A DNA stretch of 64,000 bases. Source: an uncultured Candidatus Saccharibacteria bacterium (lineage in GTDB: Bacteria > Patescibacteriota > Minisyncoccia > RBG-13-40-8-A). Shown piece after piece: positions 2,011 through 56,454 of this stretch. The notes below the pieces were generated by a model, which made no database searches, was not told the origin of the DNA, and worked only from the letters and a program-made list of their open reading frames with translations. A program made the translations under genes and the position numbers. Within the stretch, counting starts at the first letter, position 1. The number at the start of each line of letters is the position of its first letter. The DNA is taken from positions 91,903-155,902 of the forward strand of contig OZ246412.1 in assembly GCA_965231075.1 (NCBI GenBank), given 5' to 3'.

Positions 2011-2880
2011 ATGAAAATTGGATACCCGTGTATTAATTTAAGTATTGGCTGTACTGCAAATTCAACCTTTCGGTTGAAGTTTTTTTCGCGCGAAAATCTA
2101 ATAAGAAAAGTAAATAACAACCTAGAATGTTTACAAAAAATATTAGAGTTTAACGTTGAAAATAATATTTTATTTTTTCGCATTGGTTCGGGTTTAGTTC
2201 CATTTGCTTCGCACGAAATTTGCGAATTTAATTGGCAAAAACATTTTAAGAAGAAATTATTGCAAATCGGAAAATATATTAAAAAACACGAAATAAGAAT
2301 TTCTATGCATCCGGATCAATTCGTTTTGATTAATGCCAAAGACCCTAAAATAATCGAAAAAAGTTTCCAAGAGTTAAAATATCATTGCGATGTTTTAGAT
2401 TTAATGGGGCTGGATTCGACGGCGAAGATACAAATTCATGTTGGAGGAGCGTACGGGGACAAAAAAACTTCAATGGTTAGATTTGTTGATAATTATAAAA
2501 AACTCCCTAATAATATTAAAAAAAGATTAGTGATTGAAAACGACGATAAATTGTACAATTTAAAGGATTGTTTATCTATTAATAAGCAGACAAAAATACC
2601 AATTCTATTAGATATTTTTCATCATCAGTGTCTAAATAGCGGAGAGTCAACTAAGAGCGCGATTGTTTTTGCCAGTAAGACATGGAAAAAGAAAGACGGA
2701 GTTTTGATGGTTGATTATAGCAATCAAAGAGAAAATGCGCGCAGAGGCACGCATATTGAACATATCGACTTAAGACAATATAAAAACTTTTTGAAACAAT
2801 CTAAAGATTTAAAATTCGATTTGATGTTAGAAATAAAAGATAAAGAAAAAAGTGCGTTAGAGGTTATAAATTTAAAATAA
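2011..2880 (+). CDS. uvdE: UV damage endonuclease UvdE family
   Basis: IGYPCINLSIG, RISMHPDQFVLINA, IHVGGAYGDK and RLVIENDD motifs typical of UVDE. Confidence 0.75.
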   Translation: MKIGYPCINLSIGCTANSTFRLKFFSRENLIRKVNNNLECLQKILEFNVENNILFFRIGSGLVPFASHEICEFNWQKHFKKKLLQIGKYIKKHEIRISMHPDQFVLINAKDPKIIEKSFQELKYHCDVLDLMGLDSTAKIQIHVGGAYGDKKTSMVRFVDNYKKLPNNIKKRLVIENDDKLYNLKDCLSINKQTKIPILLDIFHHQCLNSGESTKSAIVFASKTWKKKDGVLMVDYSNQRENARRGTHIEHIDLRQYKNFLKQSKDLKFDLMLEIKDKEKSALEVINLK

Positions 2881-2949
2881 AAAAATTAAAGTATGGTAAT
2901 ATAAAATATAAGAATTAACTTGCCCCGCCATGGCGGGGTGAATAAAAAT

Positions 2950-3309
2950 ATGAAAAAAATATTCAAAAGATGGTGGTTTTGGGTTATTGTCGTAATAATT
3001 TTAATTTTTGTATTGTACAACTTTTTTATTAAAGGATTGATTGAATTAAATAACGAAAAATTATGCAAAAATGCGGGCGGAAAATGGGGTCTTTGGAGTA
3101 ATCTAAGGTCGCGTGGCTACGAATGTAATTTGCCGACATCCGACGCCGGAAAGGAATGTACCGACTCAAGTCAATGCGAAAATTTTTGTCAGGCGCCAGA
3201 AGAGGCAAAAGAGGGCTCAAAAGTCGTGGGTAAGTGTTATGGATTTCAAAAATCGATTGGAAGGCAAGAAGTAAAGAATGGAATTGTTGGTGGCATAAAG
3301 ATCCAATAA
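2950..3309 (+). CDS. hypothetical membrane-anchored Cys-rich protein
   Basis: One N-terminal TM helix (WWFWVIVVIILIFVLY) then a Cys-rich soluble part. Start taken at the internal Met of ORF 2920..3309. Confidence 0.4.
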   Translation: MKKIFKRWWFWVIVVIILIFVLYNFFIKGLIELNNEKLCKNAGGKWGLWSNLRSRGYECNLPTSDAGKECTDSSQCENFCQAPEEAKEGSKVVGKCYGFQKSIGRQEVKNGIVGGIKIQ

Positions 3310-27225: not shown

Positions 27226-27297
27226 AAAAACTCTGCCCCGACCTTGCGTCGGGGTTGACAACAGATTATTATAATGTTAGTATTAGCGCAGCTATAT

Positions 27298-51649: not shown

Positions 51650-51691
51650 AAATTATTTTTACTTATTGAATCTTTCCCGACGTGTGAGTCG

Positions 51692-51731
51692 GGACCCCGA
51701 CCAATGCGTCGGGGTTTTCATATAATTTATG
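51692..51731. repeat. two tandem GC-rich hairpin repeats (CCCGAC-N6-GTCGGG family)
   Basis: cccgacgtgtgagtcggg and accccgaccaatgcgtcgggg, between divergent rpmE and rpsB. Confidence 0.6.
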
Positions 51732-53008: not shown

Positions 53009-53356
53009 ATGGTTATTATTTTTCAGATTCTTTTGGGGTTAGGTATTGCAGGGCTTCTTGTTTTAATTTTTAAAAAGATCCCTGTTATTTTAAATTATCC
53101 GCGCAAGCCATACGAAAACACTTCTCTGAAAGATAGAATCAAGGAAAGGGTAGGAGCGTTAAAAGAAAAAACAGGAGAAAGCGATTTTTTGCACAAATCA
53201 ATTATTCCTAATTTGGAAAAATTCTTAAGGAAATTCAATGTTTTTGTTTTAAGGCTTCATAATTTTTCTGCGAAAATAGTTAATCATTTACGCAAAAAGA
53301 AACAAGAAAAGATAGAGCAAAACGAAGAGAATAATGACCTAGATTTGCCATCTTAG
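53009..53356 (+). CDS. hypothetical membrane protein
   Basis: One N-terminal TM, K/E-rich tail. The 3' end overlaps tRNA-Thr by 10 nt, so the end is uncertain. Confidence 0.3.
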   Translation: MVIIFQILLGLGIAGLLVLIFKKIPVILNYPRKPYENTSLKDRIKERVGALKEKTGESDFLHKSIIPNLEKFLRKFNVFVLRLHNFSAKIVNHLRKKKQEKIEQNEENNDLDLPS

Positions 53357-53418
53357 CTCAGCGGCAGAGCAACTGTTTTGTAAACAGTAGGTCCTCGGTT
53401 CAAATCCGAGAGATGGCT
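53347..53418 (+). tRNA. tRNA-Thr (anticodon TGT)
   Basis: Acceptor GCCATCT/AGATGGC, anticodon stem ACTGT/ACAGT with loop TTTGTAA, short variable arm (so not Tyr), T-arm CTCGG-TTCAAAT-CCGAG. Confidence 0.8.
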
Positions 53419-53423
53419 TTTGG

Positions 53424-53505
53424 GGGAGCGTCGCATAGCGGCTATTGCAACAGACTGTAAATCTGTCGCCTCACGGCTTCGGTGGTTCGAGTCCACCCGC
53501 TCCCA
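53424..53505 (+). tRNA. tRNA-Tyr (anticodon GTA)
   Basis: Acceptor GGGAGCG/CGCTCCC, anticodon stem ACAGA/TCTGT with loop CTGTAAA, long variable arm, T-arm GGTGG-TTCGAGT-CCACC. Confidence 0.75.
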
Positions 53506-53513
53506 TTCGACTT

Positions 53514-53584
53514 GCCGACGTAGCTCAGTGGTAGAGCGCCTCCATGGTAAGGAGTAGGTCGTGAGTCCAATTCTCACCGTCGGC
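53514..53584 (+). tRNA. tRNA-Thr (anticodon GGT)
   Basis: Acceptor GCCGACG/CGTCGGC, anticodon loop ATGGTAA, T-arm GTGAG-TCCAATT-CTCAC. Confidence 0.75.
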
Positions 53585-53595
53585 TTATAATAAGC

Positions 53596-53636
53596 CCCGA
53601 CGTATAAGTCGGGGTCCCGACCAAAGCGTCGGGATA
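53596..53636. repeat. two tandem GC-rich hairpin repeats (CCCCGAC-N6-GTCGGGG family)
   Basis: gccccgacgtataagtcgggg and tcccgaccaaagcgtcggga, between the tRNA array and rpmG. Confidence 0.6.
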
Positions 53637-53648
53637 AATAAAATATAT

Positions 53649-53807
53649 ATGAAAAAAGACTTTACCGTAAAATTAGCTTGTGAAAAGTGTAAGCGCGTCA
53701 ATCATTTTACTCGCAGAAATAAAAAAACTGTTGAGAAAAAATTAGAGCTTTCAAAGTTTTGCAAGTGGTGTAGAAAAAACACCAAACATAAGGAAGCGAA
53801 AAAATAA
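53649..53807 (+). CDS. rpmG: 50S ribosomal protein L33
   Basis: 52 aa: MKKDFTVKLACEKCKRVNHFTRRNKKTVEKKLELSKFCKWCRKNTKHKEAKK. Four-Cys zinc ribbon typical of L33. Below the ORF-track cut-off. Confidence 0.85.
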   Translation: MKKDFTVKLACEKCKRVNHFTRRNKKTVEKKLELSKFCKWCRKNTKHKEAKK

Positions 53808-53812
53808 TTCGC

Positions 53813-53882
53813 GAGGGGGTGTAGTTTAGTGGTAAAACGATGGTCTCCAACCCCGCAGCTGCGGGGCGATTCCTTCCGGGAC
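53813..53882 (+). other. degenerate tRNA-Trp-like element with embedded CCCCGC-AGCT-GCGGGG palindrome
   Basis: Shares the D-arm and anticodon 5' half (tgtagtttagtggtaaaacgatggtctccaa) with tRNA-Trp at 54148. The anticodon 3' stem and T-arm 5' part are replaced by ccccgcagctgcgggg. The acceptor strands are not complementary, so it cannot fold as a tRNA. Confidence 0.5.
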
Positions 53883-53896
53883 ATAATATTATTATT

Positions 53897-54157
53897 ATGA
53901 TGTATTATGTTTATATTCTTAGAAGTTTAAAAGATAAAAGATTGTATATTGGATATACTTCTGATTTAAAATTACGATACAAAGAACATTGCGATGGCAT
54001 GGTTAAATCCACTGCGAACAGAAGACCGCTAGAGTTAATCTATTATGAGGCCTATAAAAACGAAAAAGACGCGAGAAATAGAGAAAAATACTTAAAAGGC
54101 GGTGGCAAGGCACATAATAATTTAAAACAACAAATCGAAAATAGTATGGGCCTGTAG
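53897..54157 (+). CDS. GIY-YIG nuclease family protein (~86 aa)
   Basis: MMYYVYILRSLKDKRLYIGYTSDLKLRYKEH...NRRPLELIYYEAYKNEKDARNREKYLKGGG carries the GIY...YIG, Arg and Glu/Asn core. The ORF-track N-terminal extension reads through the tRNA-like element and was trimmed. Stop overlaps the first nucleotides of tRNA-Trp. Confidence 0.7.
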   Translation: MMYYVYILRSLKDKRLYIGYTSDLKLRYKEHCDGMVKSTANRRPLELIYYEAYKNEKDARNREKYLKGGGKAHNNLKQQIENSMGL

Positions 54158-54218
54158 TTTAGTGGTAGAACGATGGTCTCCAAAACCATTGGTGGGAGTC
54201 CGATTCTCTCCAGGCCCG
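54148..54218 (+). tRNA. tRNA-Trp (anticodon CCA)
   Basis: Acceptor GGGCCTG/CAGGCCC, anticodon stem ATGGT/ACCAT with loop CTCCAAA, T-arm GGGAG-TCCGATT-CTCTC, discriminator G. Confidence 0.8.
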
Positions 54219-54227
54219 ATTGCTTGA

Positions 54228-54274
54228 GATGGGTCTCCAACCCCGCAGCTGCGGGGCGATTCTCTCCAGGCCCG
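54228..54274 (+). repeat. partial tRNA-Trp-derived repeat (second copy of the palindrome-bearing element)
   Basis: agatgggtctccaa + ccccgcagctgcgggg + cgattctctccaggcccg. The last 18 nt are identical to the 3' end of tRNA-Trp; the middle carries the same 16-nt palindrome as 53851-53866. Confidence 0.55.
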
Positions 54275-54281
54275 AACGAAT

Positions 54282-55256
54282 ATGTCCATAAAACAAATAT
54301 TCGAAAAAATAATAAAATTATTTGGCAATAGAAAAGCAGTAATAATATTTTTTGCTGTTTTGTTTTTTTTAATCTTGGCCCTGGGATTAGTACAGCCCAA
54401 ATGTAGTGGAGAAGACAAAATAATAGTTATTGAAAGGGGGTTGGGATCTGATGAAACCGCACAACTTTTAAAAGACAATGGGATTATAAACAATAAGTGG
54501 GGATTCGTATTTTATTTATGGATAAGTGGCGGGGTCAATCACATTAAAGCAGGAGAATATTTATTAAATTCGAACATGACAATGTCAAAAATTGCTAAGA
54601 TTATTGTCAACGGTGAAATCAACAAGAATTACGTGAAAATTACCATCCCCGAAGGATGGGATATTAAAAAAATCGAAGCACGACTAAAAGACAACGATGT
54701 AATTGCCCAAGATGCAAAAATTCCGCTAGAGAACGAAGGCTATTTATTTCCCGATACGTATTATTTTTACACAAATTCTAGCGTTGATTTGGTAGTAAAA
54801 AAAATGCGCGATAATTTCATGCAAAAAATAAGTGAAATTTCTCCAGAACTTTTAATTGATTCAAGTATGAAATTACGCGATACAATTATTATGGCTAGTA
54901 TTGTGGAAAAGGAAACAAAAACTTATGCCGATAAAAAAATTGTTGCAGGAATTTTTTGGAAAAGGATTAAGAAAAACATGGCATTGCAGTCCTGTGCAAC
55001 AATATCGTATATTTTAGGCGTTGATAAGGCGCAATATACTTATAAAGACACGCGCATAGAATCGCCTTATAATACTTATTTACATGTCGGTCTTCCTCCG
55101 GGACCAATAAACAATCCGGGACTGTGGGCGATTAAGGCAACTTTAAATCCAGAAACAACAGATTATCTGTATTTTTTAAGCGCTCCAGACGGAACAATGA
55201 TTTATTCTCGCACAGCCGAAGAACATAATGAAAACAAGGTAAAATATTTAAATTAA
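54282..55256 (+). CDS. mltG: endolytic murein transglycosylase MltG (YceG family)
   Basis: N-terminal TM, then YceG-like pattern (ITIPEGWDIKKI...LFPDTYYF...GLPPGPINNPG). Confidence 0.8.
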   Translation: MSIKQIFEKIIKLFGNRKAVIIFFAVLFFLILALGLVQPKCSGEDKIIVIERGLGSDETAQLLKDNGIINNKWGFVFYLWISGGVNHIKAGEYLLNSNMTMSKIAKIIVNGEINKNYVKITIPEGWDIKKIEARLKDNDVIAQDAKIPLENEGYLFPDTYYFYTNSSVDLVVKKMRDNFMQKISEISPELLIDSSMKLRDTIIMASIVEKETKTYADKKIVAGIFWKRIKKNMALQSCATISYILGVDKAQYTYKDTRIESPYNTYLHVGLPPGPINNPGLWAIKATLNPETTDYLYFLSAPDGTMIYSRTAEEHNENKVKYLN

Positions 55257-55299
55257 ATGGGCCCCGACGCAAGGTCGGGGTAAACTTGACACAACAATT

Positions 55300-56395: not shown

Positions 56396-56418
56396 TTTCA
56401 TAGAGCTTTAAATAAAAA

Positions 56419-56446
56419 CACCCCGCAACCGCGGGGTGTTTTTATT
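56419..56446. terminator. bidirectional intrinsic terminator
   Basis: acaccccgcaaccgcggggtgt flanked by A-run and T-run, between convergent rplL and the 56455..58449 gene. Confidence 0.6.
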
Positions 56447-56454
56447 TGTTTGTA

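Follow-up and report, generated by a model that had tools for sequence, protein, structure and literature searches.

Organization of the locus

In this study, we investigated a window of 64,000 nt of AT-rich (36% GC), Patescibacteria-like DNA and, within it, a short module in which the gene of a minimal GIY-YIG nuclease is joined to the tRNA-Trp gene. The module is made up of a 5' partial copy of tRNA-Trp carrying a 16-nt GC palindrome (copy A), the nuclease gene, a functional tRNA-Trp and a second palindrome-bearing fragment (copy C), as listed in Table 1. A first-pass annotation of this DNA had described a nuclease open reading frame (ORF), an intact tRNA, a degenerate copy, a third partial copy, direct repeats and a palindrome, and all of these are present where it had placed them. 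The ORF does end within the 5' end of tRNA-Trp, with its TAG stop codon forming nt 8-10 of the tRNA, and the cassette is bracketed by imperfect direct repeats (53842-53880 and 54232-54270; 39 nt, 92% identical). Between these repeats (53842-54270) only the GIY-YIG ORF and tRNA-Trp were detected, and no recombinase gene.

Table 1. Features of the tRNA-Trp locus and its flanks (positions in the window)
Feature	Position	Strand	Description
tRNA-Thr, tRNA-Tyr, tRNA-Thr	53347-53585		Upstream tRNA cluster
rpmG (ribosomal protein L33)	53649-53807	+	Upstream flank; Pfam Ribosomal_L33, E=3.2e-14
Copy A, whole	53815-53882		tRNA-Trp nt 1-37, 16-nt GC palindrome and T-loop remnant
Copy A, 5' part	53815-53850	+	Like tRNA nt 1-37: acceptor GGGGGTG, D arm, anticodon-stem 5' strand, loop CTCCAA
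Palindrome 1, CCCCGCAGCTGCGGGG	53851-53866	.	6-bp stem, 4-nt loop; in place of tRNA nt 38-55
Copy A tail, CGATTCCTTCCGGGAC	53867-53882	+	Remnant of T loop, T-stem 3' strand and part of acceptor 3' strand
GIY-YIG nuclease gene, 86 aa	53897-54157	+	Start ATG 53897 or 53900; stop TAG 54155-54157 within the tRNA
Intact tRNA-Trp (CCA)	54148-54218	+	ARAGORN, Rfam; only tRNA-Trp of the window; CCA end not encoded
Copy C, whole	54220-54275		Second palindrome-bearing fragment, 3' type
Copy C head	54220-54240	+	Spacer, then GAGATGGGTCTCCAA: degenerate anticodon-stem 5' strand and loop (from alignment and direct repeat)
Palindrome 2	54241-54256	.	Same sequence as palindrome 1
Copy C 3' end, CGATTCTCTCCAGGCCCGA	54257-54275	+	Matches the intact tRNA 3' end at 19/19 nt
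mltG/yceG	54282-55256	+	Downstream flank, followed by rplJ and rplL; Pfam YceG, E=1.8e-80

With reference to which copies fold, ARAGORN called a single tRNA at this locus, tRNA-Trp(CCA) at 54147-54219, and the Rfam tRNA model scored it at 68.4 bits (54148-54218; gathering score 29 bits). Copy A is 92% identical (33/36 nt, 53815-53850) to nt 1-36 of this tRNA (54148-54183) and reached 19.4 bits (E=0.47), below the gathering score, with mismatched acceptor and anticodon stems. Neither copy A nor copy C was called by ARAGORN, and copy C had no Rfam tRNA match. The middle copy alone is therefore a tRNA, and copies A and C are not functional tRNAs, as had been claimed for the upstream one. Their interpretation as odd functional tRNAs was rejected because of sub-threshold scores, unpaired stems and unremarkable folding z-scores. 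A group I intron or interrupted tRNA was likewise rejected, as 53300-54400 gave no Rfam intron match at E<=10 and nothing interrupts the tRNA from 54148 to 54218.

The nuclease

The profile search of the nuclease that had been proposed as a check matched the GIY-YIG domain (Pfam PF01541) with 60.8 bits (cut-off 22.6, E=1.6e-16) over profile positions 1-74 of 78. The Pfam scan found no second domain or DNA-recognition module (NUMOD, IENR1, HTH) in the 86 amino acids, which comprise the catalytic domain only. By sequence, the closest structures in the PDB are the UPF0213 proteins BH0048 (1zg2, E=2.7e-6) and EF2693 (1ywl, E=0.002). The AF2 model (pLDDT 91.8, element order E-E-H-E-H-H) retrieved 1zg2 in Foldseek at E=4e-5, then the Slx1 nuclease domain (rmsd ~2.2 A, 30% identity); Slx1 structures 6seh, 6sei, 7cq2 and 4xlg followed at E=0.003-0.02 and rmsd 1.8-3.7 A, with I-TevI weaker (E=0.1). 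Because sequence and predicted fold are both nearest to UPF0213/Slx1 and the protein has a single domain, we assign it to the minimal Slx1/UPF0213 branch of GIY-YIG proteins, with cleavage putative. The first-pass annotation had held that a broadly conserved housekeeping gene of the YhbQ type, free of mobility signals, would speak against its reading; the nuclease is exactly of this YhbQ/UPF0213/Slx1-like minimal type, yet its gene displays clear mobility signals.

Across 46 homologues, the catalytic-motif residues Y6, Y17, G19, R27, H31 and E63 are invariant and E51 is nearly so. Among the five closest versions the ratio of nonsynonymous to synonymous substitution (dN/dS) is 0.04-0.18, with synonymous divergence (pS) of 0.51-0.76, and the low ratio indicates that the protein is maintained by purifying selection. 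The family is large, with 6407 representatives of 50%-identity clusters at E<=1e-3. The minimal Slx1-like branch was described by Dunin-Horkawicz et al. 2006 (PMC1564403) and has no established bacterial function. None of the PADLOC defence and toxin families matched the nuclease at E<=1. Phage and plasmid records gave weak matches only (<=41% identity) and nothing was found among viral contigs, so that a phage or plasmid origin was rejected.

The gene is tightly fitted between its neighbours, and ORF calls often run into tRNA-derived sequence at either end. In 24 versions that are followed by a tRNA, the stop codon is formed by tRNA nt 8-10 in 11, overlaps the first tRNA nucleotide in 5 and lies 3-5 nt upstream of the tRNA in 4; 2 have an ORF that continues through the tRNA. 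Only 7 nt separate rpmG from copy A in the window, and the gap between palindrome and start codon is as small as 11 nt (L018), which leaves no room for a promoter dedicated to the nuclease. Its gene is probably expressed as part of the rpmG/tRNA transcript and hence presumably transcribed together with the tRNA; an RNase P cut at the tRNA 5' end would remove the stop codon and leave a stop-less message, which may tie nuclease output to tRNA processing. Two further possibilities were considered and rejected: a conserved tRNA promoter within the nuclease ORF, because the match at 54092-54121 is not kept in relatives, and an N-terminal extension through the palindrome (a 105-aa ORF from 53840), because the frame varies between loci and such an extension was seen in 5 of 270 family proteins.

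Recurrence of the module in Patescibacteria

Metagenome contigs were scanned with the pattern CTCCAACCNNGCNGNTGCGGGGCNA (CTCCAA followed by the palindrome), a query that holds no nuclease sequence. This junction scan yielded 43 loci, which reduced to 27 distinct GIY gene regions after duplicate removal. The palindrome lies 11-68 nt upstream of the gene in 26 of the 27, and in 23 of the 27 the ORF either ends within 11 nt of tRNA-Trp or runs into it. The module nucleases fall into two sub-groups and are 48-88% identical to that of the window, so they do not represent one clonal lineage. Homologues with 78-88% identity were also obtained by exact protein look-up. Among their distinct loci, every one long enough to judge (L004, L007/L008 and L009) has copy A with its palindrome, the nuclease and tRNA-Trp in this order, and L004 and L007 also harbor copy C. 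Tandem arrays were observed in L023/L039, L029, L030 and L042.

Some loci depart from the common form. In L030 and L042, a palindrome-bearing pseudo-tRNA-Trp precedes C-type units repeated in tandem, which measure 53 nt in L030 and 71 nt in L042; the pseudo-tRNA of L030 has a perfect 7-bp acceptor stem, and ARAGORN calls no tRNA on either contig. L035 shares its upstream copy A with L033/L034 and has a nuclease ORF shortened to 76 aa, and its adjacent tRNA carries the anticodon ACA instead of CCA and is called tRNA-Cys; L035 is either an assembly variant or a copy in decay.

Homologues at a greater distance (57-62% identical) occupy various sites. In L060 (1300-1860), a homologue with 57% identity lies directly upstream of tRNA-Ser(cga) and is preceded by a 5' tRNA-Ser fragment with the GC hairpins CCCGCTCG..CGAGCGGG and CCCGCTCA..TGAGCGGG. 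The homologue of L065 follows a tRNA-Trp with a long palindrome, that of L066 follows tRNA-Ala, and that of L054 is near no tRNA. A further niche lies between rpsG (S7) and fusA (EF-G), where the gene stands antisense between them, beside long imperfect inverted repeats (L063, L069-L074).

Partial tRNA copies across loci

Across loci, the copy A junction always falls after tRNA nt 37, with CTCCAA abutting the palindrome. On the far side of the palindrome, the sequence picks up again in the T loop (CGAWTCC) or, in fewer cases, where the T arm begins, and copy A tails in relatives keep tRNA similarity to variable end points between tRNA nt 62 and 71. In the window, the tail CGATTCCTTCCGGGAC is closer to the tRNA-Trp 3' ends of the L001/L002 type, those of the closest relatives, than to the 3' end of the window's intact tRNA. 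Copy A as a whole resembles the L002-type resident tRNA (tail CGATTCCTT), and the 3' end of copy C matches the intact tRNA. In L007, L011, L019, L039, L041 and L043 the 5' half of copy A is 100% identical to the local tRNA, though the tRNAs vary between loci, and this pattern points to ongoing gene conversion or recombination between copy A and the tRNA.

The acceptor strands disclose a further relationship. The 5' acceptor strand of copy A pairs perfectly with the 3' acceptor strand of copy C, and the enclosed tRNA has another acceptor stem. This was observed for tRNA-Trp in L004 (GGGGGCG/CGCCCCT), L038 (AGGGATG/CATCCCT) and L051 (GGGTCCG/CGGACCT), and also in L017 for tRNA-Thr(UGU) (GCCACCT/AGGTGGC), a version that has a GIY-YIG gene of its own. 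Since copy A pairs with copy C but not with the tRNA between them, the resident tRNA was split by the nuclease together with a replacement tRNA. The first-pass view that duplicated tRNA pieces were left behind is borne out insofar as resident tRNAs are split in these four loci; it fails where it would make them passive debris, as the palindrome core is invariant.

Several other features of the tRNA genes are worth recording. On the minus strand of L017 (~560-1715), the GIY-YIG homologue (40% identical) and a tRNA-Thr(tgt) lie inside a split older tRNA-Thr (5' half GCCACCT..., 3' part ...AGGTGGC), with the insert bounded by CCCGAT...ATCGGG; on the same contig, a palindrome fragment follows tRNA-Trp. 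A partial copy of tRNA-Trp without palindrome, seen by eye downstream of the L002 tRNA, had no Rfam support and was rejected. Downstream of tRNA-Trp in L026 and L040, the tRNA 3' end (from CGATTCC) and ~55-75 nt are repeated in tandem 2-3 times, without a palindrome. In L007 (2604-2703), tRNA-Thr(ggt) is flanked exactly by the 13-nt inverted repeats CCCCGTCACTTTT and AAAAGTGACGGGG, as if it were placed in a long hairpin loop. In the window, the T loops of tRNA-Trp (GUCCGAUUC, 54195-54206) and tRNA-Thr(ggt) (GUCCAAUUC, 53562-53572) show C at the near-universal U55 in the Rfam alignments, and the same C is common to several cassette tRNA-Trp genes in other loci.

The palindrome

Exact copies of CCCCGCAGCTGCGGGG occur twice in the window (53851-53866 and 54241-54256) against 0.02 expected by chance, and none of 100 shuffles reached the observed match count. 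A search of the 64-kb window with up to three mismatches for dispersed copies resembling repetitive extragenic palindromes or miniature inverted-repeat transposable elements returned these two and a related terminator hairpin at 56421, and the palindrome was thus rejected as a dispersed repeat. Palindrome 1 forms a hairpin in every folding prediction, with the adjacent anticodon-loop CTCCAA unpaired.

The palindrome is near-invariant across 21 distinct A copies with the standard junction, and L007 and L009, which were found by protein, match the window at 31-32 of the 32 nt of the core GGTCTCCAACCCCGCAG(C/T)TGCGGGGCGATTCC. This core is invariant while the synonymous sites of the adjacent nuclease gene are near saturation. 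The palindrome cannot be maintained by gene conversion from the intact tRNA, which lacks it, and must therefore be under a constraint of its own. The few stem variants are mostly C-to-T changes on the 5' arm that keep G-U pairs in the sense-strand RNA (3/4; weak evidence). The palindrome looks to be derived from the natural middle region of tRNA-Trp and not from an inserted foreign sequence, judging by L027, in which AACCGCAGTCGGGGG of the tRNA stands against CCCCGCAGTTGCGGGG of copy A.

In L004, L008 and L038, a palindrome lies 5' of the anticodon (GGTA, palindrome, CCAA), and in L008 CCAA has palindromes on both sides. The ends of rearrangements therefore lie at the hairpin feet. The palindrome may confer immunity on the extra copies, insulate or regulate the nuclease transcript, or serve the nuclease as a structure-specific substrate.

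The stem CCCCGC-N4-GCGGGG, flanked by A/T tracts, also makes up the hairpin that follows rplL in the window, L002 and L004, and L043 has a similar one between A/T tracts; it is a local "standard" strong hairpin. The palindrome itself was rejected as a canonical intrinsic terminator, as no T tract follows it and it was not called, the same stem being found in true terminators elsewhere. A terminator/antiterminator switch through its 3' arm was also rejected, since the alternative 7-bp pairing exists in L007 and L008 only.

With regard to other hairpins, a perfect 17-bp one, AAATAAAAACACCCCGCAACCGCGGGGTGTTTTTATTT, lies at 56410-56447 of the window between the convergent rplL and a minus-strand 742-aa ORF; its core, CCCCGC/GCGGGG, is that of the tRNA-associated palindrome, and in appearance it is a bidirectional terminator. 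A second GC hairpin family (CCCCGAC...GTCGGGG) occurs in the window at 27236, 51675-51715, 53595-53634 and 55262-55280, with twin copies at 51675/51694 and 53595/53615 and with members just after tRNA-Thr(ggt) (53595-53634) and after mltG (55262); the family has the look of terminator or processing hairpins. In L002 (3640-3680), the GC-rich gccgCCCCGCAGGAGCGGGGCGAgcctcgccaagagggcggggg within a PCMT methyltransferase ORF resembles the palindrome with its CGA flank and may be an in-frame hairpin insertion.

Presence, absence and probable transfer

Syntenic relatives (L001-L003) were found through the downstream flank mltG, and the relatives are metagenome-assembled genomes labelled "Patescibacteria group bacterium". 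The comparison with relatives lacking the nuclease that had been proposed for defining the insertion was informative: in L001 and L002, the two closest relatives, rpmG is directly followed by tRNA-Trp at the same site, with neither nuclease nor palindrome. Identities to the window in these two are 81% and 71% for MltG, 89% and 75% for L10, 86% and 82% for Tsf, and 92% and 85% for L33, respectively. The module is present in the much less similar L004 (MltG 57%, L10 58%, L33 69%; nuclease 88%) and L007 (MltG 55%; nuclease 78%). The related pair L041/L053 also differ in the presence of the nuclease.

Between the window and L004, the host genes encoding MltG, L10 and L33 (57-69% amino acid identity) show pS of 0.76-0.80 and nonsynonymous divergence (pN) of 0.23-0.28, whereas the nuclease (88%) shows 0.64 and 0.07, a divergence on a par with that of host genes between the window and L001. 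The history of the nuclease departs from that of its hosts, with moderate support, because the gene is small (85 codons).

The tRNA alleles tell a comparable story at the scale of single genes. Relative to L002, the tRNAs of the window are 97% (Thr(tgt)), 96% (Tyr) and 96% (Thr(ggt)) identical, while tRNA-Trp is 76% identical with only nt 8-45 conserved; sequence comparison shows that the tRNA-Trp allele has been replaced. Relative to L001 (3459-3999; L002 region 2600-3296), the values are 98% for Tyr, 67% for Thr(tgt), 70% for Thr(ggt) and 72% for Trp, and such mosaic alleles between close relatives suggest frequent replacement of single tRNA genes.

Marks of movement are also found at the edges of the module. 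L051 and L009 harbor an extra rpmG 3' fragment immediately upstream of copy A, and the module of L009 sits in a non-syntenic neighbourhood with a tyrosine recombinase/integrase gene ~700 nt upstream; the donor flank appears to have travelled along with the cassette. L007 and L008, which are independent assemblies, are 100% identical for 3.3 kb to the right of the junction between CCAA and the palindrome and differ to its left, which is a recombination breakpoint at the palindrome junction within one population. A second strain-level breakpoint at the palindrome was considered for L028 and L036 and rejected, as these differ ~500 nt upstream, in the tRNA cluster. In L009 (1160-1770), the tyrosine recombinase gene is followed by a small ORF with a faint NUMOD3 match and then by an internally deleted rpmG remnant; the small ORF is flanked by two copies of AATAGTTATCCACAGG, which contains the DnaA-box-like TTATCCACA.

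The footprint of a mobile insertion that the first-pass annotation had read from this locus is thus supported in part. The element is accessory, moves horizontally and is tied to tRNA-Trp, being absent from L001 and L002 and present in distant carriers, but it is not a one-off event, as at least 27 distinct versions exist.

Interpretation

We consider it probable, with moderate confidence, that the region is one instance of a horizontally mobile, recombination-driven nuclease cassette living at the tRNA-Trp gene of Patescibacteria. Its homing-type character, the substrate of the nuclease, the repair pathway and the role of the palindrome are what we infer from the patterns above. The nuclease would make breaks at the tRNA-Trp locus, and these would be repaired by recombination, with the tRNA-Trp anticodon loop (CTCCAA) and T loop (CGAWTC) flanking the palindrome as homology anchors; both loops are universally conserved in tRNA-Trp. 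As the outcome, tRNA-Trp segments would be copied, duplicated or replaced along with the nuclease gene, either by homing-type gene conversion or by Campbell-type recombination through the 31-nt core. The cassette would supply or regenerate an intact tRNA-Trp, so that insertion into an essential gene would be tolerated.

A more specific form of this idea, which we regard as rather unlikely but worth stating, is that the nuclease may act on the invariant palindrome in its frame of anticodon-loop and T-loop sequences as a structured substrate of its own, in the form of a DNA hairpin or cruciform or, less likely, of an RNA handle or guide from the tRNA 5' half. The module would then be a self-contained recombination driver made up of a hairpin and a structure-specific Slx1-like nuclease. 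DNA would be broken at the feet of the palindrome, leading to duplication, exchange and replacement of the essential tRNA gene. Hints in this direction are the Slx1-nearest fold, the end points at the palindrome feet (L007/L008; L004, L008, L038) and the conservation of the palindrome at the nucleotide level. No hairpin-plus-nuclease mobility mechanism is known for GIY-YIG enzymes or bacterial Slx1 homologues.

A number of observations weigh against the mobile cassette. Both the cleavage activity and its target are putative, and from a bare 86-aa catalytic domain a sequence-specific attack on the tRNA-Trp gene is not to be expected. Were the tRNA-Trp gene the target, the cassette's own intact tRNA should be a target too, and no feature was found that would make it immune. 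As the synonymous sites of the nuclease are near saturation, the transfers must be old; the distribution could largely reflect vertical descent with repeated loss, and a function that is useful to the host, or addictive, would likewise agree with the strong purifying selection. The scan loci were chosen by the palindrome pattern, so that palindrome conservation among them is partly built in. Neither the junction nor the nuclease family was found in viral contigs. The first-pass annotation had named relatives with the repeats and no nuclease as contrary evidence: L012, L014, L049 and L053 do have tRNA-Trp and a C-type palindrome fragment without the nuclease, as remnants or precursors, while the closest relatives lack the palindrome as well. 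Finally, out of seven more distant family members looked up by protein, only L060, at tRNA-Ser, has the same layout; the other six are L065 and L066 (after a tRNA), L063, L070 and L073 (rpsG-fusA) and L054 (no tRNA nearby). The tRNA-Trp module is therefore not a family-wide rule; it is one lineage-specific niche of the family, as is usual for site-specific selfish nuclease genes.

Alternative explanations

The alternative that survives best, though we judge it unlikely, is a host-integrated module, in which the nuclease serves the cell in connection with tRNA-Trp or hairpin-rich DNA, copy A with its hairpin is a cis-regulatory leader or terminator that adjusts nuclease expression relative to the tRNA, and the patchiness results from repeated loss. 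A long residence is suggested by dN/dS values of 0.04-0.09 with near-saturated synonymous sites, and the gene order is kept down to 48% nuclease identity. The same stem serves in ordinary terminator hairpins after rplL (window, L002, L004), with a similar one in L043, and a prokaryotic Slx1-like domain fused to a TrmH tRNA methyltransferase has led to a suggested link with RNA metabolism (Dunin-Horkawicz et al. 2006, PMC1564403). However, the two closest relatives lack the cassette, and between distant hosts the nuclease is better conserved than ribosomal proteins. The duplicated rpmG fragments, the non-syntenic copy by an integrase gene, the split tRNAs and the tandem arrays are marks of a selfish or mobile element, and the palindrome, with no T tract, was not called as a terminator.

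Quite improbable, in our estimation, is that an integrase, by integration and excision at tRNA-Trp, left the duplicated tRNA pieces as att-type scars, with the GIY-YIG gene as a leftover passenger. Though tRNA-derived direct repeats are a hallmark of integrase-mediated islands, and though L009 has its tyrosine recombinase gene ~700 nt upstream and L026 and L040 their palindrome-free tandem repeats of the tRNA 3' end, the repeats of the window enclose 390 nt only, with the nuclease and tRNA and no recombinase. A passenger would also not be expected immediately beside the palindrome in 26 of 27 versions, and the repeat runs from anticodon loop to T loop and includes a palindrome that is not tRNA sequence, in contrast to the usual 3' tRNA segment.

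We find it very improbable that the module is an addiction or toxin-antitoxin-like system, in which the nuclease would be a toxin, possibly acting on tRNA-Trp or its gene, and the tRNA-Trp mimic with its hairpin an RNA decoy or antitoxin in a type III-like layout. Such a layout would agree with a structured, RNA-like element with a strong hairpin and a small nuclease ORF 11-68 nt downstream, with a mimic that leaves the anticodon-loop CTCCAA unpaired beside the hairpin, and with a patchy, mobile distribution combined with strong selection on the protein. Nevertheless, the known nuclease activity of GIY-YIG enzymes is on DNA (PMC1564403), none of the PADLOC models of defence or toxin systems matched, and most loci have no tandem array of the RNA element.

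That nothing organized exists here, and that a decaying local tRNA-Trp duplication, generic terminator hairpins and a chance neighbour gene lie side by side, is scarcely credible: GC-rich hairpins are indeed frequent (~24 distinct ones in 64 kb, with 28% of window genes having one within 150 nt of an end), but the three- or four-part arrangement recurs in 27 distinct versions found by a query without the nuclease, two exact 16-nt copies stand against 0.02 expected, the palindrome is invariant despite near-saturated synonymous sites, and the metagenome loci, with nucleases 48-88% identical to the window's, are not one clonal lineage.

Comparison with known systems

In its behaviour, the mobile cassette that we favour is closest, by analogy, to a free-standing GIY-YIG homing endonuclease gene such as segB of phage T4 (PMC2330249). 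Of the free-standing GIY-YIG homing genes of T4-like phages, segB in particular lies between genes in the T4 tRNA cluster and is present or absent among relatives (PMC2330249); genes of this type spread with flanking markers through break repair (PMC2330249), and the cassette shows presence and absence, mismatch with host history and carried flank fragments. The Seg proteins, however, exceed 200 aa, have DNA-binding modules and belong to the I-TevI/Seg branch, whereas the cassette protein is a bare 86-aa domain of the Slx1/UPF0213 branch. Unlike segB, the cassette is bacterial-chromosomal, is accompanied by a palindrome-bearing tRNA mimic and a replacement tRNA, and has an ORF that ends inside the tRNA.

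Eukaryotic Slx1 cleaves branched and stem-loop DNA according to structure, and by analogy a structure-specific cleavage would suit a palindromic substrate. The single-domain Slx1/UPF0213 proteins (YhbQ, YazA, BH0048; PMC1564403; PDB 1zg2, 1ywl, 6seh) are the best matches to the nuclease in both sequence and fold. In the searchable literature, no description of bacterial UPF0213/Slx1 members as mobile or tRNA-linked was found, whereas the cassette gene acts as an accessory, transferable unit tied to a tRNA gene.

Integrase islands and prophages share with the cassette the insertion at a tRNA gene, direct repeats of tRNA sequence and the regeneration of an intact tRNA. The cassette differs from them in having no recombinase inside its repeats and a length of only ~390 nt, and also in its core, which extends from anticodon loop to T loop and includes a palindrome that is not tRNA sequence, and in that the 5' half is most often duplicated and not the 3' end.

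In the split tRNAs of Nanoarchaeum equitans, the 5' half stops after nt 37, a GC-rich sequence able to pair with itself comes next, and the 3' piece is preceded by the complement of this sequence. The likeness is formal only, as an intact tRNA-Trp is present here, and the cassette pieces, which lack nt 38-55, cannot assemble into a tRNA, unlike the N. equitans halves. To our knowledge, bacteria also lack the tRNA splicing endonuclease.

Group I introns with homing endonucleases in tRNA genes of Patescibacteria (PMC13011429) show, in the same phylum, that anticodon loops serve as sites for nuclease-bearing selfish elements; the cassette differs in having no ribozyme and in leaving the tRNA uninterrupted. 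The study of these introns makes no mention of tRNA-Trp and holds 0 occurrences of GIY-YIG (PMC13011429). No description of a GIY-YIG/tRNA-Trp module in bacteria was found in the searchable literature, which is not proof of novelty.

Significance of the module

For annotation, the palindrome-bearing tRNA halves are to be treated as recurrent elements and not as assembly noise. The module also offers a testable pair of nuclease and putative substrate, namely the 86-aa protein and the 16-nt palindrome. If the favoured explanation is true, it would explain the shuffling of tRNA alleles between close Patescibacteria while the neighbouring genes stay in place, and it would provide the first concrete context for the functionally blank minimal bacterial Slx1/UPF0213 family, as a selfish or recombinogenic unit tied to a tRNA gene.

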